Positions 36 to 23,175 of a stretch of 64,000 nucleotides of DNA are shown piece by piece. Made by a program: the position numbers and the translations under genes. The stretch spans positions 1-64,000 of IMG/VR virus record IMGVR_UViG_3300044691_000566; one strand, 5' to 3'. Each line of letters opens with the position of its first letter. Position 1 is the first letter of the stretch. The notes below the pieces were generated by a model. It did no database searches and was not told the DNA's origin. It was given only the letters and a program-made list of their open reading frames with translations. Source of the DNA: a virus.

Positions 36-3000
36 ATGCGCATCATCGAGTCGTACGCCAGTCATGGTCTCGTGATCGAGATGGACGGCCGCACGTATCC
101 GTGCCCGGCCCTCCTGGAGGACGACGAGGACGGCATCCGGTGGCTGTTCGCCCCGGGTCCCGAGGTCTATGCGCCGACGTGGGCACGGGCCTCGGCAGCG
201 GGAGCTGCGGGCATCCTCATCCTGGAGGGCGAGAAGGACCGAGCCCTTGGTCTGGATTTTAAAATTCGTGCCATGACCTCGGAGCGCTTCGCCGAGCAGC
301 GCGAGGAGCGGTCGTCGAACTATGTGGCGCCCTTGGACCGGTGGGCCCAGTTCGACCATGTTCCGAACTACGCCGAGGTCTACCAGGCCACCCCGGGCAA
401 GCTGATCATTGCGTCGTCCTCGGTGCTGACCGGTTTCGTGCACGGCCACACGCACTCGGAGTTCTCACCGATGGACGGCCTGTCCACGGTGAAGGAGATC
501 CTGGAGCAGGCCGTGGCGGACAACCAGCCCGGTCTGGCCCTGACCGACCACGGCCGGTGCTCCGGCCATCCGGCCCTCCAGGCCGAATGCGACGCGGCCG
601 GGATCAAGCCGGTCTTCGGGATCGAGGCGTACTTCCAGGACGACCGCTTCGCCCGGTCCGACCCGCAGAACACCAAGGAGCAGAACCACCAGATCCGGTA
701 CGGCTACACGCACCTGATCCTCTGGGCCATGAACGAGGAGGGGCTGCACAACCTCTGGGCCATGTCCACAGAGAGCTTCCGGGACGGCAACTACGACTCG
801 AAGCCCCGGATGGACTGGGACACCCTGCGTCGCCACAGCAAGGGCGTCATGGCCGCCTCCGGGTGCCTGCGCGGCCCCCTGAGCGTCCCGATCCTCAACG
901 ACGACGAGGAGGGCGCACGCGTCAACCTCGGCAAGCTCTTGGACATCTACGGGGACCGGTTCTACCTGGAGGTCCAGCCCAACAAGCTGGCCGAGCAGGA
1001 AAAGGTCAACAGGGCCCTGGTCGGCATGGCCAAGGACTTCGGCGTGCCGCTCATGGCCACCGTGGACTCCCACTACCCGACCAAGACCGACCACGAGGCC
1101 CACCAGGCGTGGATCGCCATCCAGACCAACAGTGACGTCAACGACGAGGGCGACCTGTTCGCGGTCAACCTGGACCTGTACATGCAGACCGAGGCCGACG
1201 TCCGGCGCGGGCTGGCGTACCTCGGGGCCGAAGCGGTCGACGAGGCAGTCCGGAACACCCTGGACCTGGTGACCCGTACGGCCGCCCGGATCGGCGGCAA
1301 GCCCGCCGCGCCGGTCTACTCCAAGAAGGGCGGCGTCGATCAGGACGCCGAGCGCCTGCTGGACCTGTGCATCGAAAACTGGGCGAAGATCGGCTTCAGG
1401 CCGAACCAGAGCGACTACATGGCCCGGTTCGAGCGGGAGTTCGCGCTGCTCAAGTCCAAGGGCTTCTGCGGCTACTACTTGATGGTGAGCGATTACTGCC
1501 GCTTCGCGAAGAACAATGGCATCCTGGTCGGCCCCGGCCGGGGGTCGGGCGCGGGATCCCTGGGGGCCTATCTCTCCGACATCACCGAGGTGGACCCGCT
1601 CGAAGCGCGGTTGCCCTTCGAGCGCTTCATTACCGAGGGCCGCACCTCCCTGCCCGACTTCGACGTGGACTTCCCCGCGTCGAAAAAGGACGTGATGCTC
1701 GGCTACCTGCGGGACAAGTACGGCGCCGACTACGTCACCCAGATCGGCACCCACCTGCGGCTGAAGTCCAAGGGCATCGTGCAGAACCTGGGCCGCGCCA
1801 TGATGTCGGTGCTCCTCCAGGACCTGTACGACGTGATCGACAACGAAGAGGGTCCGATCTTCTCGGCCGCGCGGGAAGGCGAAGAGATCGAGCTGCGCAT
1901 CAACGCCCGGGAAGCCGAGATCCGCAAGGACCTGGCCGCCGTATCGAAGATCATCGACGAGGCGGAACGGGGCACGGCCGGGCTCGGTATGCCCTGGGAC
2001 GACCTGTGGGTTCAGTTCGGTGACGAGCTGGGGATCTACCGGCAGAAGTACCCGAAGCTGTTCGACATGGCGGACAAACTCGTCGGTCGCCTGAAGTCGT
2101 ACGGCAAGCATGCTGCCGGAGTGGTGATCAGCACGGACCGGCCACTGGTCGACTGGCTGCCGCTCATGGGCGGCGAAAACGGTCAGATGGTCTCCCAGTT
2201 CGACATGGGCGCCCTGGAGGCCATGGGCCTGGTCAAGTTCGACATCTTGACCGTCCGGACCCTGGACACCATCCAGGTGGCCGTCGACCTCATCCGCGAG
2301 CAGCGTCAGGTCGACGTGGAGATCTACCAGTGGACGGACGAGTACCGGGACCCGGCCGTCTGGGACGAGATCTCTCGGGGCAACACCCTTGGCATGTTCC
2401 AGATCGAGACCCATGCGGGAACCCGACTGGCCACCCGCATGAAGCCGCAGAACATGCAGGAGCTGGCCGACATGACCACCATCGTCCGGCCCGGTCCGAT
2501 GCGTTCCGGTCTGACCGACACCTATCTCAAGCGCCGTGCCGGGGAAGAGATCGTCACGTACAACGACCCGCGCCTGGAAGCCATCACGGGCGATTCCCAG
2601 GGGTGCCCGATCTACCAGGACCACGTCCTGGAACTGCTGATGAAGCTGGCCGGGTACCGATCGGACGAGGCCGACGAGGTCCGCAAGATCCTCGGCAAGA
2701 AGAAGATCGAGAAGATCGGCCCGGCCGGTCAGGAGTTCGTCCACCGCGCCCAAGAGTGGGGTGGCATGGACCGCGATGTCGCCCAGCACCTCTGGGACCA
2801 GCTCGCCGAGTTCGCGAAGTACGGCTTCAACAAGGCCCATGCCTACACCTACAGCATGATCACGTACTGGACGGCGTGGTTGAAGATCCACTATCCGGTG
2901 GAGTTCTTCGTGGCCGCCCTGTCCACCATCGACAAGGACAAGATCCCGGCGTTCATCAAGGAGGTCCGGCGCTCGGGCTACACGGTGCTGCCGCCGGACA

Positions 3001-3962
3001 TCAACGCCTCCGGCAAGGGCTTCAAGGCCGAGCCGCTGGCGGTGCGGTACGGGCTGGACTCGATCAAGGGCATCGGCGAGGCCGCCGTGGACTACCTGAT
3101 CGCAGGCCAGTTCTACGCCGATTTCGACCAGTTCGACCAGTACGTCACCGCGAAGGGCACCAAGGCCAATGCGGGCGTCCAGATGCTCCTGGCGAGGATA
3201 GGAGCACTGGACTCCCTGGAGCCCCGCCGAGCGGGCCTGGTGGCCCTCCTGGAGGGCCGCAGCAGCGGGGAGGACTCCCGGTGCGTCTGGAAGCGCGACG
3301 ACGTCCGGTACCGCCCCGAGGGGGTGGACAAGCCGGACCGCGTACCCGGGGAATCCGACGAGGAGTGGCTGGTCCGCCAAGAGGCGTACGACGCCGAGTG
3401 GAAGGCCGCTCGGGCGTTGCTGCCGCCCGACTTCTGCACCTTCGACTGGACCACCGAGGAGCCGCCGGTCAATCCCCGCACCGGCAAGAAGCTGGCGCTG
3501 AAGGCACTCCCCAAGAAGTGCACCAAGGCGTGCCGCCAGTACACCGCGCCTCCGCCCGTCCAGGTCGGCGACCAGCCGGATTTCAGCGACGAGGCCATAC
3601 GGGCCATAGAGCACGAGCTGCTCGGCGTCTTCCTGTCCAGCACGCCGTTCGACCGGCTGGACCCCGGTGACCGCAAGCGGCTGTACGGCGACGCCGAAAG
3701 GCTGGTCGCGGGGGAGCCCGGCCTCTACACCATGGCCGCGATCCTCATGTCCGTACGCATGACCAAGACCCGGGCCTCTCAGGAGGACATGGCGTTCCTC
3801 GCCCTCGACACCGAGGTGTCGACGGTGGAGGCCGTGGCCTTCCCCAAGACGTGGATCGACATCAAGACCGGCATGCACACCGGGCAGCTCTGCCTGGTGG
3901 TCCTGGAGAAGCAGGACGGCGACCGGGGCCTCGTGATCCGCGAATACCTGCCAGTTCACTAG
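36..3962 (+). CDS. dnaE: DNA polymerase III alpha subunit (DnaE-like) with PHP domain
   Basis: HTHSEFS/TDHG PHP motifs, GPGRGSGAGSL, catalytic PDFDVDF, KFDIL, YGFNKAHA, C-terminal OB fold; ~130-aa N-terminal extension. Confidence 0.97.
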   Translation: MRIIESYASHGLVIEMDGRTYPCPALLEDDEDGIRWLFAPGPEVYAPTWARASAAGAAGILILEGEKDRALGLDFKIRAMTSERFAEQREERSSNYVAPLDRWAQFDHVPNYAEVYQATPGKLIIASSSVLTGFVHGHTHSEFSPMDGLSTVKEILEQAVADNQPGLALTDHGRCSGHPALQAECDAAGIKPVFGIEAYFQDDRFARSDPQNTKEQNHQIRYGYTHLILWAMNEEGLHNLWAMSTESFRDGNYDSKPRMDWDTLRRHSKGVMAASGCLRGPLSVPILNDDEEGARVNLGKLLDIYGDRFYLEVQPNKLAEQEKVNRALVGMAKDFGVPLMATVDSHYPTKTDHEAHQAWIAIQTNSDVNDEGDLFAVNLDLYMQTEADVRRGLAYLGAEAVDEAVRNTLDLVTRTAARIGGKPAAPVYSKKGGVDQDAERLLDLCIENWAKIGFRPNQSDYMARFEREFALLKSKGFCGYYLMVSDYCRFAKNNGILVGPGRGSGAGSLGAYLSDITEVDPLEARLPFERFITEGRTSLPDFDVDFPASKKDVMLGYLRDKYGADYVTQIGTHLRLKSKGIVQNLGRAMMSVLLQDLYDVIDNEEGPIFSAAREGEEIELRINAREAEIRKDLAAVSKIIDEAERGTAGLGMPWDDLWVQFGDELGIYRQKYPKLFDMADKLVGRLKSYGKHAAGVVISTDRPLVDWLPLMGGENGQMVSQFDMGALEAMGLVKFDILTVRTLDTIQVAVDLIREQRQVDVEIYQWTDEYRDPAVWDEISRGNTLGMFQIETHAGTRLATRMKPQNMQELADMTTIVRPGPMRSGLTDTYLKRRAGEEIVTYNDPRLEAITGDSQGCPIYQDHVLELLMKLAGYRSDEADEVRKILGKKKIEKIGPAGQEFVHRAQEWGGMDRDVAQHLWDQLAEFAKYGFNKAHAYTYSMITYWTAWLKIHYPVEFFVAALSTIDKDKIPAFIKEVRRSGYTVLPPDINASGKGFKAEPLAVRYGLDSIKGIGEAAVDYLIAGQFYADFDQFDQYVTAKGTKANAGVQMLLARIGALDSLEPRRAGLVALLEGRSSGEDSRCVWKRDDVRYRPEGVDKPDRVPGESDEEWLVRQEAYDAEWKAARALLPPDFCTFDWTTEEPPVNPRTGKKLALKALPKKCTKACRQYTAPPPVQVGDQPDFSDEAIRAIEHELLGVFLSSTPFDRLDPGDRKRLYGDAERLVAGEPGLYTMAAILMSVRMTKTRASQEDMAFLALDTEVSTVEAVAFPKTWIDIKTGMHTGQLCLVVLEKQDGDRGLVIREYLPVH

Positions 3963-3970
3963 GAGACCCC

Positions 3971-5059
3971 ATGCCGCCCAAGGTCAAGAAGACCTACACC
4001 CGTCCCGCCTCCCTGGCGTCCTACCGCAAGGCCCAGGAGAAGAAGTACGGCGACCGGATCATCCGCAAAGCCACCCGGCAGGCATTGGAGTTCATACCCA
4101 CCGGAGTGACCGGCCTGGATCTGGCGCTGGGCGGCGGCTGGGCCCGTGGCCGCTACCACCAGATCATCGGCCAGCCCAACACTTGCAAGACCTCGATGGT
4201 GCTCATCGCCATGAAGAACGCCCTGGACCGCTGGCCGGATCAGGGCGTGGTGTACCTGGACGTGGAGAAGACGGTCTCCGAGGAGCGGTTCCTGGCCCAC
4301 GGCATCGACCCCGACGACGACCGCTTGCTCTGGCGCTCGCCCGCCAGCGGCGAGGAGGTCGCGGACATGCTCCGGGACGACCTGCGGAGCGGCCTGTTCT
4401 CCATGGCCGCCATCGACTCGGTGGGGGCCATGGAGCGTGAGGACGCCCTGTACGAGAAGGCCGCGTCCGAGTCGGTCATGGGCAAGGCCGCCCAGCTCCT
4501 GACCCGCATGTCCAAGCAGGTCACCACCATCTCCCGGGAGACCAACACTGCGGCCTTCATCGTCAACCAGTACCGCAAGGACTTCGAGGGCGCCTTCGAC
4601 AAGGCGGCCGGTCCGATGATCATGGGCTACATGACCACGGACTCCGTGGCGATGCGGCGCCTGGGCGGCGCGGAGAACATCGTCGTGGTCAAGGAGGGCG
4701 GCGACGACATCGAGGTGGCCCACAAGGTGGTGGCCAAGGTGGAGCGCAGCAAGTTGCGCACCCAGGGCGCCAAGGCCGAGTTCTGGTACAACAAGGTCGC
4801 CTACGACGGCGCCGAGGTCGGGATCGACGTGGCCGCCGAGGCGTACGACATCGGGGTCAAGGCCGGGGCCATTGTGCCGGGCAAGGGGTACTACTGGATT
4901 TTCCCGGACGCCTCCACGGCCAACGGGAAGGCGCAGTCCATCGCGCACCTGCGGGACCACCCCGATCTTCTGGAGCAGGTTCGGGTCAAATCGTTGGAAA
5001 ACATCGCCAACGAGCTGACCCCCGAGGTCGACGTGGAGTTCGACCGTGTCGGCGAGTGA
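3971..5059 (+). CDS. recA: RecA/UvsX-like recombinase
   Basis: IPTG..LDLALGGG, Walker A variant GQPNTCKT, IDSV, FIVNQ; RBS AGGAG before ATG 3971. Confidence 0.9.
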   Translation: MPPKVKKTYTRPASLASYRKAQEKKYGDRIIRKATRQALEFIPTGVTGLDLALGGGWARGRYHQIIGQPNTCKTSMVLIAMKNALDRWPDQGVVYLDVEKTVSEERFLAHGIDPDDDRLLWRSPASGEEVADMLRDDLRSGLFSMAAIDSVGAMEREDALYEKAASESVMGKAAQLLTRMSKQVTTISRETNTAAFIVNQYRKDFEGAFDKAAGPMIMGYMTTDSVAMRRLGGAENIVVVKEGGDDIEVAHKVVAKVERSKLRTQGAKAEFWYNKVAYDGAEVGIDVAAEAYDIGVKAGAIVPGKGYYWIFPDASTANGKAQSIAHLRDHPDLLEQVRVKSLENIANELTPEVDVEFDRVGE

Positions 5060-12188: not shown

Positions 12189-14255
12189 ATGGCTGCCGCC
12201 ACTCCCATACGGTCCAAGCCGCGCACTTCCACGCTCCCGGTCGGTTTCGGCCCGGGGCAGATCTTCCAGCTCTTCACCGGCCTGCCGATTCCGGATCCGA
12301 TCACGTTCGTGCTCAGTCCGGATTACCTGGACCGTGGAACGATCATGTATCCGCGTCAGGCCACCCTGCTGAAGATCATTTTTCTGCGGTTGGACCTGCT
12401 CACCGACTATGACCACAAGGTCATCGACGAGTGGGAGGAGAGCTTCCGGGAGAGCGGCAACAATGGCATCGTGCCCGGCGTCCGCCGAAGGATGGCCAAG
12501 CTCCGCCAGAAGGGGCACAGGTGGTTCCGCGAAACCTTGCTCGTCATGGGGCGCCGGGCCGGGAAGGGCCACATATCCGGCCTGTCCATGAGCTACGTGC
12601 TCTGGAACTACATGGCCAAAGGGGATCCGCAGCGGTTCTACGGGGTGGACCGGGACAAGAAGCTCCAGGCGATGGTGTTCGCCGGGAAACGCGACCAAGC
12701 CAAGGCCACCGTGTGGCAGGACATGGTCAACTACATCACCGGTTCCGCCTGCTTCACCCCGTACATACGGGCGCCTCTCCAGGCCGAGAAGCTCAGCGTC
12801 TACGCCCCGCACGATTTCGTCCGAATGCGCCGCCGGGCCCAGCAGGGGATGAACCCCGATGACGTGAACATGGCCACCTTCGAGATCGTCCCGAAGGAAT
12901 CCACGCTGATGGCCGGACGAGGGCCGACCAGCTTCATGCAGGCGTACGACGAGATGGCCCACGTCGTGGCCTCCGGCGCCAACCGGGCCGCCGAGGAGGT
13001 CTACGGGGCCGCCAAGCCCTCCCTGGACCAGTTCGGTGCCGACGCCTTCATTATCGAGCCGTCCAGCCCCTGGCAGATGCTCGGCCAGTTCTACGTCAAC
13101 TACTGCAACGCGCTGCTCGTGGACGACGAGGGCGAGCCCGTCTACCTGGACATGCTGATGGTCCAGCTCGCGAGCTGGGACATTTACCAGGACTGGGAGA
13201 TAGCCCACGAGATAGCCGTCTTCCCCGAGGGATTCACCGGGGACCTGGGGGAGTACGAAGGCCAGCCGCCGCTGTACTTCAACCCCCTGAGGGGCGCCAT
13301 CCAGGCGTACGACGACCAGATGGCCCGCGAGGAGCAGGCCAACCCCGACACCTTCAAAGTGGAGCGCCGCAGCCACTTCGCGGTGGCCCTGGACGCCTAC
13401 CTGAACGAGGCCAAGGTCAAGGAGATCTTCGCCCCCTGGACCGGGCGCCACGAGCACTACGGGGCTCCCCAGCTCGGTATGCAGAGCCGGGGACGGCTGG
13501 ACCTCGACTACAAGGCCCACGGCGACCCGTCCAAGTCGAATGCCAACTTCGGCCTGGCCATGGCTCATGCCGAGCCGGGCCCGGACAACCGGCTGCACGT
13601 GGTGTTCGACAAGATCCACCATTTCAACCCCGGGGATTTCACCGACCACATCATCGACTACGACGAGGTCGAGGAGTGGATCTGGGGCAACATGCTCAGC
13701 CCCTTCATGCCGACGGAGATGACGTTCGACCAGTTCAACAGCGCCCAGGTGATCCAGCGGCTGGGCCGCCGGTCCCGGACCGCATCGCTGCCCAAGGTCA
13801 CCCAGGTCTATGAGAAGACCGCGACCAAGCAGCACAACTGGAAGCGCGCGGAGATCTTCAAGACCGCCGTGAACATGGGCTGGGTCCACGCTCCGTACTA
13901 CGAGCAGGCCGAACTGGAGCTGCGGTTCCTCCAGGAGAAGAACGGCGTGGTCGACCACCCGGACGCCGGGCCGGTCCAGACCAAGGACGTCGCCGACGCG
14001 ATGATGGAGTGCGTGATGGCCCTCATCGGCGACCAGATCGTCTCCATGCGCTCCGAACTGGGCTCGATGCGCCCCCGGGGCGGCATGCAGGGCGGCATCG
14101 AGCCGTTTCCGGGCATGTCCCGCAACGACGACATGAGCAACGCGCCCAAGACCCAGGAGCAGGTCTTCCAGCAGCTCGGGGGCTTCGGCAAATCTCGTGG
14201 TATGCGGGAGGACATGATGCGCAAGGGCCCCAGGACTCGCCGACCGCGTTACTGA
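12189..14255 (+). CDS. terL: terminase large subunit
   Basis: YPRQ adenine-binding motif, Walker A GRRAGKG, Walker B AYDEMAH, nuclease motifs HGDPS/TFDQFNS/KDVADA. Confidence 0.9.
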   Translation: MAAATPIRSKPRTSTLPVGFGPGQIFQLFTGLPIPDPITFVLSPDYLDRGTIMYPRQATLLKIIFLRLDLLTDYDHKVIDEWEESFRESGNNGIVPGVRRRMAKLRQKGHRWFRETLLVMGRRAGKGHISGLSMSYVLWNYMAKGDPQRFYGVDRDKKLQAMVFAGKRDQAKATVWQDMVNYITGSACFTPYIRAPLQAEKLSVYAPHDFVRMRRRAQQGMNPDDVNMATFEIVPKESTLMAGRGPTSFMQAYDEMAHVVASGANRAAEEVYGAAKPSLDQFGADAFIIEPSSPWQMLGQFYVNYCNALLVDDEGEPVYLDMLMVQLASWDIYQDWEIAHEIAVFPEGFTGDLGEYEGQPPLYFNPLRGAIQAYDDQMAREEQANPDTFKVERRSHFAVALDAYLNEAKVKEIFAPWTGRHEHYGAPQLGMQSRGRLDLDYKAHGDPSKSNANFGLAMAHAEPGPDNRLHVVFDKIHHFNPGDFTDHIIDYDEVEEWIWGNMLSPFMPTEMTFDQFNSAQVIQRLGRRSRTASLPKVTQVYEKTATKQHNWKRAEIFKTAVNMGWVHAPYYEQAELELRFLQEKNGVVDHPDAGPVQTKDVADAMMECVMALIGDQIVSMRSELGSMRPRGGMQGGIEPFPGMSRNDDMSNAPKTQEQVFQQLGGFGKSRGMREDMMRKGPRTRRPRY

Positions 14256-14383
14256 TGGGACAACCTTGCGCTGACCTCGGGGTTTGTGCTTCTATAGTGA
14301 TGAGACCAACGGTTATTTCGGGTCCTCCGGGAACCTCGGAAACGATCTCTGGCGGGATCGGCTAGGAGACTAGCCCCTTGGTC

Positions 14384-14411
14384 GAAGGCCCCCACTTCGG
14401 TGGGGGCCTTC
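14384..14411 (+). terminator. GC-rich hairpin with TTCG loop
   Basis: GAAGGCCCCCAC-TTCG-GTGGGGGCCTTC. Confidence 0.7.
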
Positions 14412-14456
14412 TGCTGTCCCCGGTGCACTCCAGACCCCGAAGGGGTGGAGGTGCGC

Positions 14457-17400
14457 GTGAAGCTCACGGAGCTGTTCGGGAAGATCGGCAACAAGACCTG
14501 CCCGTGCTGCGGCGGCGCCGGGGAGCACAAGACCGGCTTCGAGTGCTACCTGTGCGACTCCGGCGGCGACGTCCCCCGGCGCACCCCCGACGACGAGAAG
14601 TGCGACGGCTCGTACCAGGACGGCGGTCCGAGCCACCTCAACGACGACGGCAGGGCGTGGCTGAAGGGCTACCGCAAGGGCAAGACCATCACCCGGGGGC
14701 GCACGATGGCTGCTCTTGACTCCCGATGGAATCCTCCTCGCGAGGAGGGGGCTCACCGGGACGTCCACCCGCAGGTCCAGAGCATCGGGCCCGTGTATCA
14801 CGCGACTCGCGCCGAGCATTGGCCGCCGTCGGCCAAAGAGGCTCCCCACCTCCACTTCGGCACGCTCCAGGCGGCTCATGAGCGCATCGCTTCTGGAGAG
14901 CACTCCTACGGCGCGACCCCTCAGCACGAGGGGCGCTGGCGCCTGTTCGAGGCCCACCTCCAGGGTCCGGTACACCCGCACCACATCTATGACGATGAGG
15001 CCCAGGAGGTGCCGTACACCGCCGGATACGACACCTCCCGGATCTACCCGTACGAGAACGAGACCGAGGACGTCGGAAGCACTTCGTTCCTCGCGCCCCA
15101 CCACGCGGTGAAGCGGTGGAAGGAAATTCCCGTCGGCGACAGGACGGCAGCGGCCGACGATGCCGGGCTGATCCACCGTGGCGTCAGCGTTGTACTACCG
15201 GAGCACATTCACGCCTTCGTCCACGACGAGGCCCAGCCTGCTCCGGCGCGGGCCCACATGCTGCTGTCCGAGGTCCGCAAGCAACACCCGGAGATCACCT
15301 CGGAGGAGGCCCACGGGACCACGGGCGGCCTCGGGAACTTCTGGTCCCCCTCCAAGAACAAGGCCGCCGAGTACGGCGACCAGGGCGGCTGGACGGCGTA
15401 CCGCGACCACGAGCGCGAGCACCACTGCGGCGGGTACGACTCGAACATGGGCGGCTGCCCGACAACGAAGGTCGTCATGCATGCCGGGACCCCGCCGGAG
15501 AAGCACCACTGGAACGAGGTCTTCCGCTCCGGGGAGAAGTACGACCCGGAGATCTCCTGGCGCCTCCCTGTGCGCCCCGGAGCGCCCCTCATGGTGCACG
15601 GGATCTCTTGGAAGCCGGGGGAGGACAACAAGCACTACGAGGACCGCGCCGAGGAGAAGACGCCCTTCGAGCGGTACGACTTCCTGCGGCCGGTGAAGAA
15701 GCGGGCCGGAGCGAACGGCGACCTGCCGAACGACCTCCGAATGGAGTTCACGCCACACCACACGGATGAGAAATGGCTTCCCCGGCCGGACACCGGGGAG
15801 CGAGACACCTTCCATCGCGTGCAGGCATTCGCTGGCGACGATCCCGCACGCGTGGGCGAGATGTCCTGGTACCCCAAGACCGGCGAGGTGGCCCACGTAT
15901 GGGTCCGTAATGACCACCGCCGTCGGGGCATCGGGTCGGCGATGTGGAACTACGGCGTCCAGGCGGCTACCGAGCAGGGGCATAAGCTTCCCGAGCACTC
16001 TCCGAACCAGTCGGACGCCGGGAGTGCGTGGGCGCAGCGCAACGCCCGCGTGGCGATGCCGTCCAAGAAGTACCCACGCCCGGAGGGCATCCACACCGAG
16101 ATCCAGCCCATGGAGCACGGCTCCCAGGACTGGCACCAGATGGAGCGGAAGAACCCCGGCTGGGACCACCAGGTCCTGCACGGCTACCACGACGACGAGC
16201 ACGCTGGGTCGATCACCTTCTCCACCCACCCGCGCAACCCCGCACTGTCCGTGGGGATGATGGACGTGGATCCCGACCACTCCGGCAAGGGCATCGCCTC
16301 GGCCATGCAGGACGACCTGGCCGACGCCCACCCGAGCCATTTCATCGATCACGGCTCGCGCACCCGGCAGGGCAAGGACTGGTGGGACTCGTACGAGGAC
16401 CCGGCACCCCACCGGAACATTCACAACCTGCCCCAGGAGCAATGGGGCAAGGCGTTCGACGTTCCCGAGGAGAAGCCCGCGCCCAAGGGTGAGGCGTGGG
16501 GCCACCACATCATGAGGCTGTCGCCGGAGGACCACGCCTACGTGACCGGGCGGGGAATGTGGGACGGCCACGAGTCCGCCAAGCGGGTCCTCAAGACCAT
16601 CGGCGACTCCCCGGTCACCTGGCACACCGACGTGGACTCCCCGGAGTACTCCGGGCACGCCAGGATCGCGGCCGAGGAGGCGGCGGACGCCATCCACCCG
16701 GAGGGGCGCCACGAGGCCGGGCAGACCCCGCTGATGCGGGTACTGCTGCACACCAAGAACGGCAAGACGGTCGACCAGGTCTCCGTCCGGCCGCACGTGG
16801 ACTACTCGGATCTGCCCTCGGGCTACGACAACCATGGCCGGGACTTCCGTCTCTCCCGGCCGGTCAAACACCCGTCCCTGTCCCGGACGGCCAGCGCATC
16901 GGGGGAGTACACCTTCTCGCACGTCCCGGCTACAGAGGGAGACCCGCATTCCTTCGAGGCCCATGACCAGGCGGGCAAGAACGTCGGCTATGCCACGGCG
17001 GAGGAGCACCCGGACCACGTCTTCATGGATGAGGTCTACGTGCACCCCGACGCTCGGGGGAAGGGTCTCGGCCGGTCCCTGACCCAGAACGTTCTGGACC
17101 ACTTCCAGGGCCGCGAGGTGCGACTGAAGCCCGACGCGTACCAGGCCGAGCAGGACAAGGAACCGGGCCCCGACTCTGCCCGGCTGCGGCAGTTCTACCA
17201 CTCGATGGGCTTCCGGCCCGACCCCTCCGGCCGGATGGTCCGGACGGCCAGCAGCGACGACGACTACCGGATGGAGCACCGGCCACCGGATGCCGAGGGC
17301 GGCATACCGCTGCATGACCTCACGAAGAACCTGCCCTCCGACATCTACCAGACGCTGCACCATTACGATCCGACCATCGGGGACCCTGCTGACAACAGCT

Positions 17401-19277
17401 TCTCCGAGGCGCGGAGCGCGATCTACAAGGCCCGGGGAAATCCGGAGGCCAAGATCCGCATCTACCGTGCCCTGCCCGCCGAGCATGCGCACCAGGGGTT
17501 CCGGCCGGGCGACTGGGTGTCCACCAGTAAGGAGTACGCCCGAGGGCACGCGAGGCACCACGCGGACCCGAAGCACGACTGGCCGGTGATCCGGACCACG
17601 GTCCGGGCCGGAGACCTGCACACCAGCGGCGACGACTTGCGGGAGTACGGCTACAACGGCGACAAGCCCAAGATGGGCATGATCTCCTTCAAGGGCGGCT
17701 ACCACCAAGAGGTCCGGGATGCTGCCGACGGAACTATCGTGCCCGTGAAGCGGCGCCCCAAGACGGCCACCATCGCCGACGGCGGCCCGGTGCCCGAGGG
17801 CATCCAGGGCTCGGACCACGAGGGCCACGAGGTCGTGATGACCCCGCAGGACGGCTGGGCCCACGTGGACGGCTCCCACGGGCACGAGGACGGCTCCGAT
17901 ATCGGGGACCACGCGGTCTACACCATGCACCACACCTGGCTGCCGGAGGGGAAGTACTGGGGTCCCAACAGTGCCCAGAACGACCAGCGGCTGTTCGAGG
18001 GGGACCATCTGCGGCCGGAGATCCGCAAGGACGTCCTTAATCGGGTTAACACCTACATGCGGCCCCGGTACAAGGAGTGGCCGTCCTGGACGAAGGTGTA
18101 CTTCGCCGGGTCCCAGGCAGCGCAGTGGCTGGACCAGAACGGTCAGGGCAACGGGGACTTCGACATCTTGATCGGCATCGACTTCGAGCGGTTCCGGAAG
18201 GACAACCCGGAGTACGACGCCGAGGCGGACGATGCTATCGCCAAGCTGCTCACCGACGGCATGCACAAGACGATCAACGAGGACGGCGCCTGGTTCCAGT
18301 TGCAGGACGGCCGGGAGGTCGGACCCTTCGACCGGACCTACTTCGTCAATCCGCTGGCATATGACATACGCAAGATCCATCCGTATGCGGCGTACAACAT
18401 CACCGACGACACCTGGGCCGTGCACCCCCTCCAGGTCCCGGAGGACTGGGACGCCACGCATCTGCCGGAGTCCTACTGGGGCTACGCTGAGTCGCTCCTG
18501 AACGAAGTCAAGGCCATCGGCCAGCTCCCGCCGGAGGAGCGCCACCGCATGGCCGCCAACCTCTGGGAGGAGCTGCACACCCACCGCTCGGATGCGTTCG
18601 GCGACAAGGGCCACGGTCTGTTCGACCTGTCCAACATCGTCGAAAAGTACATGGATCAGCACCCCGACAAGCCCTGGGCGAAGTTGTACCAGTGGAAGAA
18701 CGAGTCCCCGTCGGGACCGCGACCCTGGGTCCCGACGACCGCCAGGAGGACCACGTTGACGACCTTGTTCGACTCCAGGACGGCTGCGGCCGGGGCAGAC
18801 TATGGCGGCATGATGATCGCCATAGTGCCGCCCAAGGGCATATGCAAGGACCTCGCCGTGGAAGACGGCGAGCCGGTGGACGCCATGCACGTGACGCTGG
18901 CATACATGGGCAGCTCCAGCGAGTACACCAAGGCGCAGCGCGAGGGCCTGCACGCCCTGGTGGAGGGCTGGGCCCGTACCCAGAAGCCCCTGACGGCCAA
19001 CGTGGGCGGTGTGGGGACCTTCGTGAACCCCGACCAGCACGTGCTGTGGGCCGCAGTGGACATTCCCGGGGGAGGGGCCTTCCGGGAGTCCCTGGTGGAG
19101 ACCCTGGAGCGCCACGGGTACAACGTGCGGAACGACCACGGGTGGACTCCTCACCTGACTCTTTCGTATGGAGAGAGCCACTTCCGCTTCATGCCCAAGG
19201 TGAAGCCCGCAAGCTGGGAGGTCGAGCAGATCCACGTCTGTGTCGGGGGGTCGTGGGAGGCCGTCGCACTCGGCTGA
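14457..19277 (+). CDS. polyvalent multi-enzyme protein: Zn finger, ART-like x3-4, GNAT x3, Pol-beta NTase, 2H phosphoesterase (Acb1-like)
   Basis: GGAGG RBS before GTG 14457; YHATR/HFGT, IHRG/NFWS, IYRA/GDWVST; RRRGIG, SGKGIA, RGKGLG..FYHSMGF; FAGS..GDFDILI; HVTL and HLTL. Confidence 0.85.
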   Translation: MKLTELFGKIGNKTCPCCGGAGEHKTGFECYLCDSGGDVPRRTPDDEKCDGSYQDGGPSHLNDDGRAWLKGYRKGKTITRGRTMAALDSRWNPPREEGAHRDVHPQVQSIGPVYHATRAEHWPPSAKEAPHLHFGTLQAAHERIASGEHSYGATPQHEGRWRLFEAHLQGPVHPHHIYDDEAQEVPYTAGYDTSRIYPYENETEDVGSTSFLAPHHAVKRWKEIPVGDRTAAADDAGLIHRGVSVVLPEHIHAFVHDEAQPAPARAHMLLSEVRKQHPEITSEEAHGTTGGLGNFWSPSKNKAAEYGDQGGWTAYRDHEREHHCGGYDSNMGGCPTTKVVMHAGTPPEKHHWNEVFRSGEKYDPEISWRLPVRPGAPLMVHGISWKPGEDNKHYEDRAEEKTPFERYDFLRPVKKRAGANGDLPNDLRMEFTPHHTDEKWLPRPDTGERDTFHRVQAFAGDDPARVGEMSWYPKTGEVAHVWVRNDHRRRGIGSAMWNYGVQAATEQGHKLPEHSPNQSDAGSAWAQRNARVAMPSKKYPRPEGIHTEIQPMEHGSQDWHQMERKNPGWDHQVLHGYHDDEHAGSITFSTHPRNPALSVGMMDVDPDHSGKGIASAMQDDLADAHPSHFIDHGSRTRQGKDWWDSYEDPAPHRNIHNLPQEQWGKAFDVPEEKPAPKGEAWGHHIMRLSPEDHAYVTGRGMWDGHESAKRVLKTIGDSPVTWHTDVDSPEYSGHARIAAEEAADAIHPEGRHEAGQTPLMRVLLHTKNGKTVDQVSVRPHVDYSDLPSGYDNHGRDFRLSRPVKHPSLSRTASASGEYTFSHVPATEGDPHSFEAHDQAGKNVGYATAEEHPDHVFMDEVYVHPDARGKGLGRSLTQNVLDHFQGREVRLKPDAYQAEQDKEPGPDSARLRQFYHSMGFRPDPSGRMVRTASSDDDYRMEHRPPDAEGGIPLHDLTKNLPSDIYQTLHHYDPTIGDPADNSFSEARSAIYKARGNPEAKIRIYRALPAEHAHQGFRPGDWVSTSKEYARGHARHHADPKHDWPVIRTTVRAGDLHTSGDDLREYGYNGDKPKMGMISFKGGYHQEVRDAADGTIVPVKRRPKTATIADGGPVPEGIQGSDHEGHEVVMTPQDGWAHVDGSHGHEDGSDIGDHAVYTMHHTWLPEGKYWGPNSAQNDQRLFEGDHLRPEIRKDVLNRVNTYMRPRYKEWPSWTKVYFAGSQAAQWLDQNGQGNGDFDILIGIDFERFRKDNPEYDAEADDAIAKLLTDGMHKTINEDGAWFQLQDGREVGPFDRTYFVNPLAYDIRKIHPYAAYNITDDTWAVHPLQVPEDWDATHLPESYWGYAESLLNEVKAIGQLPPEERHRMAANLWEELHTHRSDAFGDKGHGLFDLSNIVEKYMDQHPDKPWAKLYQWKNESPSGPRPWVPTTARRTTLTTLFDSRTAAAGADYGGMMIAIVPPKGICKDLAVEDGEPVDAMHVTLAYMGSSSEYTKAQREGLHALVEGWARTQKPLTANVGGVGTFVNPDQHVLWAAVDIPGGGAFRESLVETLERHGYNVRNDHGWTPHLTLSYGESHFRFMPKVKPASWEVEQIHVCVGGSWEAVALG

Positions 19278-21375: not shown

Positions 21376-21470
21376 CCGATTTTAAAACCCTGCCAGAGAG
21401 GGGTAGCGCTCCAAGGATTCTTGGAGTAAAGTCACCCATGTCAGAACAACCGACTCCTCAGGAGGCCACC

Positions 21471-22376
21471 ATGGCAGCAGAGTTGCAGACCTTCACCCGG
21501 CGGATGATGGAGGGGGTCCTCGCGGACCACGCCGCCACCACCGAGCACAACCCCTACTGCTGCCAGATGGCCCGTGAATACGCCGACCGCCTGGGCATGG
21601 AGACGACCCCCGCTGCGGCCCCGCAGACGGCCCCCAAGCCCTCCGAGACGCCTGCCGCCAGGGTCCCGGCGCCCCGCACGGACAAGCCCGCCGTGGACGC
21701 CTCCAAGCCCGCGTCGGACCGGCAGCTCGACTACATCGTCTCCCTCGGCCGCCGGGTGGGTCAGAGTCTGATCTCCCCCCAGCACCGCGAGCAGCTCAAG
21801 GTCGCCCGGGAGGGCGGGAGCCTGAACCGCCAGGAGGCCGCCGACCTGATCGAGGCGCTCAAGGCCCAGACCGACGAGCGCCCGCGCCCGGCGTCCGACC
21901 GGCAGATCAAGTTCATCCACTCCCTGGTCAAGACCAAGGACTGGGCCGGGACGATCGACTTCGAGAAGCTCACCTCGGCCACGGCGTCCGACCTGATAGT
22001 GGAGCTGAAGGCGGCCCCCGCGAAGCCGAAGGCCGATGACGAGGTGGACGTCGTCCACACCCCCTCCAGCCGCTATGTCCCTGACGAGGGGTACTACTTC
22101 GTGGACGGGACCTACTACAAGGTCCAGGATCCGAAGGTCAACGGCGGTGGCCGCTACGCCAGCAATTGGCACCCCGATGCCGAGAAGTGGAACTACGCCG
22201 GTCAGAAGTACTTCCGGCTGCTGACCCAGGACAAGAAGCTCACCGCCGAGCAGGCGACGGCCTTCGGGACCCTGTACGGACGCTGCATCGTCCGTGGGTG
22301 CCCGCTGACCGACGCGGAGTCGATACGGCGCGGCTACGGCCCGATCTGCGCGGAGCGCATGGGCTGGCCCCTCTGA
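21471..22376 (+). CDS. DUF6011-like protein with repeated ASDRQ helical units
   Basis: Two PASDRQ..I repeats; C-terminal C..LTDAESIRRGYGPICA. Confidence 0.7.
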   Translation: MAAELQTFTRRMMEGVLADHAATTEHNPYCCQMAREYADRLGMETTPAAAPQTAPKPSETPAARVPAPRTDKPAVDASKPASDRQLDYIVSLGRRVGQSLISPQHREQLKVAREGGSLNRQEAADLIEALKAQTDERPRPASDRQIKFIHSLVKTKDWAGTIDFEKLTSATASDLIVELKAAPAKPKADDEVDVVHTPSSRYVPDEGYYFVDGTYYKVQDPKVNGGGRYASNWHPDAEKWNYAGQKYFRLLTQDKKLTAEQATAFGTLYGRCIVRGCPLTDAESIRRGYGPICAERMGWPL

Positions 22377-22383
22377 TCCACCT

Positions 22384-22405
22384 GGCGGGGCCTTCGGGCC
22401 CCGCC
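22384..22405 (+). terminator. hairpin with TTCG tetraloop
   Basis: GGCGGGGCC-TTCG-GGCCCCGCC. Confidence 0.6.
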
Positions 22406-22452
22406 GCCCCTCCCGCCAGAATCACCTTCCCAACAGACCCCTGGAGGTCACG

Positions 22453-23175
22453 ATGACCACGAACACGAACATGGACAAGGCCCCGCTTCCCGTCCTGGAG
22501 GCCGACGGCCACGCCAACCCGCTGTACGACACCGACAGCCACGGCAACATCACCTCCGAGGTGGAGGACTTCAGCATGGGGCTGTCGTGGGAGGAGAAGG
22601 GCGCGGGCCAGAAGAAGAAGGCCGCCGACCGCGTGAAGCTCTTCATCGGCAAGCAGAAGGGCGACATCGCCACCAACCTGTCCGACCTGGACGCGGGCGC
22701 CCTGTTCTTCGTCGTGGGCAACAAGCCGACCAAGTACTTGGGCTTCGACAACTTCAACCCGTTCAAGGACGAGATGGAGCCCGGCGCCGCGCAGTCGGCC
22801 GTCCACTCCGGCGACAACCAGACCGGTGCGGGCGACGGCGACGACGAGACGATCACTCTGCGCCTGAAGCTGATCCCCCGCCGTTTCACCCGCATCCTGA
22901 TCGTGGTCGGGGCCTTCAAGAAGGGCTCCGATGTCGAGGCCACCACCGACATGAAGGCCACGATCTACGACAACACCGGGGGCACCTCCCAGGCCATGGC
23001 CGTGATCGAGCCGTCGCTCCTGGAGGACAAGCACATTCTGCCGGTCGCCCGGCTGGACCGTGTGCCCGGCACCGACCGCTGGACCCTCACCGTCTGCGAC
23101 GGCTCGTTCAACATCACCCAGGGCGACATGAAGAGCCTGCTGCGGGCCTCCATGAACGCCATGGCCGCCCACTGA
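22453..23175 (+). CDS. TerD-family protein
   Basis: MGLSW, DLDA, HSGDNQTGAGDGDDETI signature. Confidence 0.9.
   Translation: MTTNTNMDKAPLPVLEADGHANPLYDTDSHGNITSEVEDFSMGLSWEEKGAGQKKKAADRVKLFIGKQKGDIATNLSDLDAGALFFVVGNKPTKYLGFDNFNPFKDEMEPGAAQSAVHSGDNQTGAGDGDDETITLRLKLIPRRFTRILIVVGAFKKGSDVEATTDMKATIYDNTGGTSQAMAVIEPSLLEDKHILPVARLDRVPGTDRWTLTVCDGSFNITQGDMKSLLRASMNAMAAH

Follow-up and report, generated by a model that had tools for sequence, protein, structure and literature searches.

Introduction

Polyvalent proteins of phages and conjugative elements, which unite two to 15 unrelated enzymatic or effector domains in one polypeptide, were described, together with hypotheses on their processing, by Iyer, Burroughs, Anand, de Souza and Aravind (2017; PMC5512222), in whose text the word 'linker' does not occur. 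In the current view, phages inject such proteins as toolkits against host defences, and ideas on their loading and separation are largely conjecture. In phage T4, capsid-targeting propeptides of 7-65 residues are removed by gp21 (PMC9026906), and in the giant phages SPN3US and phiKZ ejection and head proteins are reported to be cut by the prohead protease at sites ending in Glu, as determined by mass spectrometry (PMC10052503; PMC7411985). In this study, we analyse a polyvalent effector gene of a virus (IMG/VR record IMGVR_UViG_3300044691_000566) and its relatives. The window, i.e., the whole stretch of DNA that was analysed, comprises 64,000 nucleotides and represents the first 64 kb of one contig of 159,746 bp with 66% G+C, in which almost all genes are oriented on the + strand. 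The gene (14457..19277, +) is located directly downstream of terL and its product qualifies as a polyvalent effector protein as understood by Iyer et al. (PMC5512222), since it unites unrelated effector domains in one phage-encoded chain and has relatives with mosaic architectures; the initial annotation, which was derived from the sequence alone, had come to the same designation. Eight segments of the chain are supported, namely three GNATs, a domain with an ADP-ribosyltransferase (ART) fold (domain X), a nucleotidyltransferase (NTase), a 2H phosphoesterase, and a paralogous pair of domains designated d3 and d5. The modules are connected by a conserved peptide, here called the joint, which is at the same time a terminal tag, as it forms the N-terminal leader and, in a sister subfamily, the C-terminal end. 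Residue numbers refer to a stop-to-stop translation of 1625 residues unless stated otherwise; those of the real protein are lower by 19.

Occurrence of the joint peptide in the chain

An (R/K)-T-A linker at nearly every domain boundary had been proposed in the initial annotation. The motif is present and all eight coordinates assigned to it were found to be exact, but the conserved element is wider and consists of a joint of about 12 residues that copies the N-terminal leader. True module boundaries are marked by the motif; that between GNAT 2 and d5 lacks its strict form. The leader itself, (M)KLTELFGK (14457..14483, +), is the prototype of the joint peptide and is conserved at the N-termini of homologues; a short helix is predicted at its residues 3-7, and the model confidence of leader and joints is low. 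An AlphaFold2 model of the N-terminal part (residues 20-828; 809 residues) contains four confident domains (d3, 251-437; GNAT 1, 470-547; GNAT 2, 553-655; d5, 694-828), and its first 250 residues (model residues 1-231), which include a Cys-rich motif and a unit with the motif YHATR, are of low confidence. The joints, all on the + strand, comprise RTAA (15141..15152), where the predicted local distance difference test (pLDDT) values are low up to model residue 231; the variant RVAM (16047..16058), in the low-pLDDT stretch 529-533 of the model between the GNATs; RTAS (16884..16895); a second RTAS (17241..17252; pLDDT below 50), which is homologous to the leader end of Phabba gp212; KTAT (17760..17771), which follows the basic run PVKRRP; and a full internal copy of the leader, TTLTTLFDSRTAA (18750..18788), between the NTase and 2H modules. 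Every copy of the motif lies in a low-pLDDT linker between confident domains and not within a folded domain.

Two forms of the joint can be distinguished, one with the consensus hydrophobic-x-x-hydrophobic-F-x(1-3)-[KRM]-[TA]-A-[AS] and a basic one, PVK[KR]..[KR]TA; d3, d5, and X carry a basic variant at their ends, RPVK[KRH]..[KR][TR]A. The extended pattern occurs in this genome only at 18750..18788 and in a head protein of 1700 amino acids (see below). The strict motif [RK]TA[AST] is found five times in the protein, whereas its composition predicts 0.15 copies and the frequency in all other proteins of the genome 0.55 (P = 2.7e-4). Linkers of high-GC phages contain much A, T, P, G, and R, and the loose pattern [RK]xA is present 17 times, in some cases inside domains, as would be expected if the motif had arisen by chance in linkers that are rich in Ala, Thr, and Arg and belong to a GC-rich genome. 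However, none of 20,000 shuffles reached five strict copies, and conservation of the motif extends to 72 homologues, to chain termini, and to other genera, so that an origin by chance is effectively refuted.

Module exchange and natural chain ends in homologues

In a search of 5.8 billion proteins, 72 relatives with 930-2800 residues were found. A C-terminal NTase-2H pair is common to 37 of them, with 58-75% identity, and the N-terminal parts of these 37 proteins differ, containing sets of NUDIX, ParB, ART-PolyVal, GNAT, and d3 modules; cupin modules are also found in relatives, and a second group of homologues has the same modules in different orders. Domains are swapped at the motif among homologues, an outcome that the initial annotation had named as a check: module order and number vary, and the block edges coincide with the motif. 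Local-alignment edges cluster, in the numbering of the real protein (the window's own database entry, P0003), at 229 (joint RTAA), 417-428, 527-532 (RVAM), 797-810 (first RTAS), 925-931, 1100-1105 (KTAT), and 1414-1453, which are the motif sites. Among the 72 homologues, 69 block-start clusters are located within about 12 residues of a motif, compared to 26.5±4.6 by random placement, a difference that yields no clean probability because the sequences are related.

The N-termini of the family follow the pattern M-x-L-T-E-L-F-G-K-T-A-A, and those of sister subfamilies read MLEYFTAA or MGFNFRAAA. The NTase/2H joint (TTLTTLFDSRTAAAGAD) repeats the leader in full, and in the alignment of this joint L[TS]xLF is better conserved than KTAA. 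In the MLEYFTAA subfamily, 15 proteins terminate with ...s-L-x-D-Y-F-G-[MVEK]-[AT]-A (e.g., ...DYFGMAA-stop); for 13 of the 15 the chain end was taken from the protein sequence only, and for the loci L019 and L020 the stop codon was read in the DNA. At these two loci, the 2H module is encoded by a gene of its own (184-185 amino acids; L019 6736-7293, L020 14235-14789), which lacks a leader and whose start overlaps the stop codon of the polyvalent gene by ATGA (ATG on TGA in GCATGA). Leader, joints, and the 15 C-termini thus place the same peptide at the start of the chain, between modules, and at its end, and since the 15 sister proteins stop there, natural chain ends coincide within one residue with the predicted cut that is described below.

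The conservation of the tag as a free C-terminus in these 15 proteins, and as an N-terminus, would also be in line with an uncut docking tag, whose short helix and small-residue tail would bind to the procapsid interior, the portal, or a chaperone and whose copies would raise avidity, or with a degradation or recognition tag of the type A-A-COOH. The persistence of L[TS]xLF beyond that of KTAA, the helix predicted in the leader, and the likeness of the leader to the start of T4 Alt agree with this. In encapsulin systems, a short terminal peptide loads cargo into an HK97-fold shell, and such a function would suit a conserved C-terminal tag. On the other hand, no binding partner has been identified, leader and joints are not confidently modelled, and the likeness to ssrA-type tails and encapsulin peptides is a presumed one; we regard a docking or degradation tag without cleavage as quite unlikely.

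A related observation concerns P0078, a short relative of 558 amino acids from a 152-kb NCBI record under Streptomyces albidoflavus, in which an N-terminal RelE/ParE-like toxin, d3, and 2H are linked by the joints LTAFFRQAA and SLTDHFRKTS. This record hints that the clade infects Streptomyces.

Candidate functions of the joint

The reading that we favour, at somewhat less than even confidence and by analogy with the capsid-targeting propeptides of T4 (PMC9026906), is that the joint is a processing and loading signal. In its favour speak the excess of motif copies and their location in linkers, the coincidence of block edges and natural chain ends with the motif, the identity with the leader, the leaders of stand-alone homologues and of small structural-region genes, the enrichment in head-module proteins, the retention of the amino acids through synonymous changes, and the synteny with terL. 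A phage protease would cut the joint just after T-A-(A/S). The most likely candidate is the prohead protease of the gp21 type, since the tag is also found behind the protease domain in its own gene, which has a leader-like start (MLKYASAQ). Single enzymes, each with the tag at its end, would be set free in this way and the short leader at the N-terminus would be lost; the procapsid would take up this set of enzymes, and they would enter the host together with the DNA. In the host, the injected enzymes might modify proteins and nucleotides by acetylation, ADP-ribosylation, nucleotidyl transfer, and cleavage of cyclic phosphodiester signals. Herpesvirus assemblin sites have the form (V/L/I)-x-A↓S, and an assemblin-fold enzyme that cuts after Ala and before Ser or Ala would suit T-A↓A/S. 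A complex prediction for protease residues 1-250 and the NTase/2H joint (residues 1436-1475) gave a score of 0.01, which carries no weight either way.

An extension of the processing and loading signal, which we consider unlikely, is that the joint is a universal 'cut-and-keep' cargo tag of the clade. It would dock a module to the procapsid or the protease and be cut after T-A-A, the common C-terminal tail, which is the natural end of the 15 sister proteins, being left on each released enzyme as a loading peptide or as a signal for timed degradation, and new modules could be plugged in in frame at any joint. If this were true, the tag would represent a programmable protein-loading system with a simple sequence rule.

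Several observations weigh against a processing and loading signal. The gp21/phiKZ-type proteases studied so far cut after Glu, unlike the site T-A-(A/S) postulated here, and no acidic residue is present at a fixed offset from the motif. In the literature that was searched, no cleavage or virion data were found for the clade or for the proteases of cluster C, and no proteomic or expression data for the clade. The motif is enriched in head-module proteins (1.1 vs. 0.34 per 1000 amino acids elsewhere; P = 0.002), a point for such a signal and a check named in the initial annotation, but its strict form is absent from the major capsid protein and the portal, and the KTAA that follows the protease domain is not kept in phages I3 and E3. 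The strict motif is found at 69 of 758 block edges and is lacking at the other 689. In E3, the stretch after terL is occupied by small genes, mostly annotated as hypothetical or membrane proteins. The position right after terL was confirmed, but it does not place the polyvalent gene in the head module, as the portal, protease, and capsid genes are 60-85 kb away. In addition, KTAA is replaced at the orthologous NTase/2H joint of close relatives, by SQASGT in L007 and AKAKEP in L009, while L[TS]xLF stays, and among 25 joints of six genes (window 15144, 16887, 17244, 17763, and 18780, plus L007 and L017-L020) Thr is encoded by ACG in 19, compared to a background of 30-41%; the commoner Thr codon in these genes is ACC, and adjacent synonymous third positions vary. 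The codon bias hints at some constraint at the nucleotide level.

The last three of these points, i.e., the location of the gene outside the head module, the decay of KTAA in proteins that are still intact, and the prevalence of ACG, speak at the same time for an evolutionary seam, that is, a cassette boundary partly kept at the DNA level within a multi-enzyme chain that would stay uncut in the infected cell, whether packaged or not. The variable order and number of modules, the fusion or fission of genes exactly at the joint, and the fact that no protease with a matching specificity is known can be understood in the same way. The joint amino acids are, however, retained despite synonymous and K/R changes, whereas nearby synonymous sites are not conserved and the core, with about 9 nucleotides, falls short of the length needed for homologous recombination. 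Moreover, chains retain the peptide at their very N- and C-termini, positions at which a seam would have nothing to join, and it has the role of a leader in stand-alone structural-module proteins of other genera. A pure seam is rather unlikely in our view, and the processing and loading signal remains the favoured reading.

Further candidate explanations of the motif were tried and rejected. An A-x-D/E site would require an acidic residue at a constant distance behind the motif, but the enrichment of acidic residues is diffuse and spans +5 to +7, and for a T4-type L/I-x-E site in the leader the Glu is not conserved. The tag [L/F]SSG is not enriched here. Avoidance of a restriction site with the word ACGGC was dismissed because this word is not under-represented. 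The joint as a 'fossil start codon' (ATG to ACG or AGG) is at odds with the split genes, in which the tag stays upstream and the downstream 2H gene has no leader.

Domains of the polyvalent protein

The initial annotation had counted about ten domains in a single open reading frame after terL. Eight of the ten segments hold; the unit with the YHATR motif does not, and the zinc finger stands as a motif only. All segments are encoded on the + strand. The Cys-rich, zinc-finger-like motif CPCCGGAGEH..ECYLCDSGG (14499..14567) is conserved in homologues as CxCCxGxGEH..CxxC, but its pLDDT is about 50 and no Pfam family was matched. The following segment, d2 (residues 101-247; 14700..15140), begins with RTMAA and has only three homologous copies. 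It had been described as ART-like because of the motif YHATR..HFGT, an assignment that was not supported, as the pLDDT is about 30 and neither Pfam nor an ART-PolyVal profile gave a match; that profile, which was made from the homologues, found no match anywhere in this protein. From the model, d2 is possibly disordered.

Domain d3 (15153..15710; pLDDT 80-96), which ends with PVKKRAG and has no Pfam match, had likewise been labelled ART-like for its motif IHRG..NFWS. This label derives from the motif and is no more than putative; the fold is predicted with confidence. Searches with the 809-residue N-terminal model (Foldseek pdb, VIA wide, Atlas) gave GNAT matches only, and because the GNATs filled every list of fold matches, the fold family of d3 and d5 could not be assigned. 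The Atlas features for d3 gave weak leads only, with a PARP-bearing cluster at 0.84. Among 43 full-length copies, d3 has an invariant Arg and a conserved HExxH-x-C-x9-C; HExxH itself is found in 38-41 of the 43, and in three copies H, H, C, and C are lost together. Domain d5 (16479..16883; pLDDT 70-92) is a shorter paralogue of d3 and a genuine 'degenerate copy' as supposed initially: hhalign aligned the two with a probability of 56% (E 1.2e-4), and the AlphaFold2 model has the same order of secondary structure elements in both (beta-alpha-alpha-beta-alpha-beta-beta-beta).

The HExxH motif raises the question of whether another protease could process the chain. Candidates are host proteases and enzymes that form part of this protein or of homologues, namely zincin-type modules or the HExxH of d3, and they might act in the cytoplasm or once the protein has been injected. 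Zincin peptidases were proposed as processors of polyvalent proteins by Iyer et al. (PMC5512222), and d3, with HExxH in most copies, is the most widespread module after NTase-2H. Nevertheless, no Pfam peptidase match was obtained for this protein, the simultaneous loss of both His and both Cys residues points to a structural zinc site, and sister-subfamily proteins without d3 still possess the tag; processing by such an enzyme is very unlikely in our judgement. For d3 itself, a function as zincin peptidase was rejected, since the co-variation of HExxH with two Cys residues makes a structural zinc site more likely.

The three GNATs (GNAT 1, 15807..16040; GNAT 2, 16059..16364; GNAT 3, 16896..17240) were confirmed by Pfam GNAT models above the curated cut-off and by the GNAT fold; GNAT 3 matches PF00583 and PF13508, with its best stretch at residues 848-941. 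Domain X (residues 952-1120; 17253..17759), the third unit originally described as ART-like (IYRA..GDWVST), indeed has an ART fold of the R-S-E type (YR..DWVSTS..EYGY) with conserved motif positions: 16 sequences agree without exception in Y83-R84, in D99-W100-V101 with a subsequent S/T, and in E143. The predicted Pol-beta-type NTase module (17772..18749), which is the conserved core of the family and 60-75% identical in 38 homologues, is supported by the conserved motif G-S...D-F-D (FAGS..GDFD) and by Atlas features (0.94 for 'nucleotidyltransferase', 189 shared features; PF01909 in 48% of one cluster), while Pfam is silent and no PDB sequence match was found for it. The C-terminal 2H phosphoesterase (18789..19277, including the stop codon) carries the motifs HVTL and HLTL, matches PF13563 with 42.6 bits (cut-off 27), and has PDB matches of the LigT or 2',3'-cyclic phosphodiesterase type (2fyh, 1vdx, 1iuh), in agreement with the family originally assigned to it; an Acb1-like activity on cyclic oligonucleotides would be putative.

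Gene structure, terL linkage, and neighbourhood

The source genome is a large actinophage and belongs to a clade of actinophages of roughly 155-160 kb. Its major capsid protein shares about 60% identity with the counterparts in cluster C mycobacteriophages, Rhodococcus phage E3, and Gordonia phages, and its terL product is 32-35% identical to annotated terminases, from which we infer a distant uncultured relative of the Bxz1/Myrna/E3 myoviruses. The large terminase gene terL (12189..14255, +; 688 amino acids) contains the Walker A motif GRRAGKG, and tblastn matches to the terminases of E3, I3, and cluster C phages cover 87-98% of the query. The open reading frame of the polyvalent protein extends from stop to stop over 14400-19277 (+; 1625 codons; G+C content at third codon positions 0.90). 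GTG at 14457 is taken as the true start, since it is preceded by the ribosome-binding site GGTGGAGG (14444-14451) and homologues begin with MKLTELFGK; P0003 also starts there. The gene thus comprises 1606 codons plus the stop codon.

Between terL and the polyvalent gene, a GC-rich, terminator-like hairpin with a TTCG loop and without a T run is located at 14384..14411 (+), and a promoter scan detected a weak sigma-70-like site at 14271-14298, after terL. The hairpin core, GGCCCCCAC-TTCG-GTGGGGGCC, recurs at genome position 111147 after a structural gene and is probably a terminator without a T run. Translation of this hairpin has given rise to spurious N-terminal extensions ('GAFCCPG') of several database homologues. 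A promoter-like cassette of about 45 nucleotides (TTGAC[AG]CTCCAACAATCCTTGGRGTAGTCTTGAC..GTCA) is present in at least 16 copies, all on the + strand and each ahead of a group of small genes (window 26040-62258, with further copies at genome 65536 and 107929), and is absent from the region 0-26 kb, in which polymerase, RecA, terL, and polyvalent genes are located. The window opens with genes for a DnaE-type DNA polymerase III alpha subunit of 1308 amino acids and a RecA/UvsX-like recombinase (36-5059). Downstream of the polyvalent gene (21438-23175) follow genes for a DUF6011 zinc-ribbon protein and a TerD-domain protein, both syntenic in relatives.

A megablast search of phage records with the polyvalent gene gave no match, and a scan of viral contigs with the single protein sequence found none, whereas an alignment-based scan revealed seven loci. 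In all nine related loci for which upstream DNA is available, terL lies directly upstream of the polyvalent gene, with terL identities from 84% down to about 50%. The link with this packaging gene is thus constant, in contrast to the modules, whose content is fluid. In three of the nine loci terL is split, and the genes called at the break have weak or faint Pfam matches to inteins and homing endonucleases. In the distant relatives L017 (4493-7738) and L020 (1861-5613), the interruptions show weak or faint matches to intein/Hint, GIY-YIG, and LAGLIDADG, and the flanking terL pieces are 51-67% identical to the terL of this study.

Head module and proteins with leader-like starts in this and other genomes

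The portal gene is located at genome 79320-81425 and is followed by the gene for a head-module protein of 1094 amino acids and, two genes after the portal, by that for the 1700-amino-acid head protein (genome 84769-89871; L002:769-5871). The latter has four copies of [RK]TA[AS], one of them as GKLFARKTAA, and is considered a second polyvalent protein because its orthologues (P0067, P0068, P0070) carry a ParE toxin, an Arr-type ART, and domain X. The prohead protease domain forms residues 16-217 of a protein of 1231 amino acids (genome 94169-97864; L002:10169-13864). It is of the gp21/phiKZ type (PHROG 18299) and matches E3 gp77, which is annotated as prohead protease, as well as proteins of Erwinia and Achromobacter giant phages that bear the annotation head maturation protease. 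The protein starts with MLKYASAQ and KTAA follows directly after the protease domain (FFYASTQKTAAQ); the domain is fused to about 1000 further residues with DUF7178 and a weak GNAT match. Two other head-module proteins contain the strict motif as well. The gene for the major capsid protein is located at genome 100032-101021.

Further downstream, three adjacent small genes of the structural region (genome 112389-114369; L003:8389-10369) encode proteins with leader-like starts, namely MSLLYA, MSTLWAQAA, and MSLLWRTAMVRTAS, respectively. The first has a weak match to a ParB-like nuclease, and the third has a domain of the Arr-ms rifampin-ADP-ribosyltransferase type (PF12120; 5.8e-7). Stand-alone homologues of domain X adjoin genes annotated as 'structural' or 'minor tail' in E3, and those of Phabba and Skog are situated 15-50 kb downstream of the capsid gene according to the record coordinates. 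The homologues in the structural modules of Phabba and Skog have a leader of 16 residues ending in W-RTAS right before the same domain, which in Phabba gp212 begins with DDDYRM, and the protein studied here reads V-RTAS-SDDDYRM at the equivalent place; Skog gp173 contains two copies, and E3 gp206 contains RKAA and RQAAA.

Novelty and significance

The concept of polyvalent, possibly processed, and possibly injected proteins has already been published. What is new is that joint and leader are the same peptide, that the tag is conserved at the C-terminus and genes are split precisely there, that the linkage to terL is fixed, and that modules are exchanged with the giant protein of the head module. 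The clade offers a testable rule, as one peptide is found at the start of the chain, at the joints, and, in sister phages, at the end. If it is a cleavage or loading tag, it would imply a new specificity for a gp21-type or other phage protease, explain how modules can be swapped without loss of function, and provide a portable tag for the packing of foreign proteins into actinophage capsids, comparable to the capsid-targeting sequence of T4. If it is a recombination seam only, it would be a clear case of in-frame domain shuffling at a conserved boundary.

Comparison with known systems

Like the polyvalent proteins described previously (PMC5512222), the protein studied here is phage-encoded, has a variable architecture, and contains many unrelated effector domains per chain (GNAT and ART in this protein, NUDIX and ParB in homologues), and for both, processing and delivery with the DNA have been proposed. 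In contrast to the described proteins, among which a peptidase domain is common but not obligatory, this chain yielded no match to a zincin- or assemblin-like peptidase domain, a defined joint recurs as leader, linker, and C-terminal end, and the position after terL is fixed. T4 differs in that its effectors are single proteins rather than polyproteins and are known to be packaged, whereas packaging is inferred here, and in its cleavage site, which is L/I-x-E compared to a core of [KR]-T-A-[AS] and a leader without a conserved Glu. What T4 has in common with this phage is a gp21-type protease, and T4 Alt, an ART, and IPI-III are packaged effectors with N-terminal propeptides (PMC9026906); the start of Alt, MELITELFDE (L023:7384-7503, -), resembles MKLTELFGK, which may be a coincidence. 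SPN3US and phiKZ (PMC10052503; PMC7411985) differ from the phage studied here in the motif and in the location of the gene, which in this genome is outside the head module; the present case would resemble them in a large head-borne protein that is cut at a short motif by a gp21-type protease.

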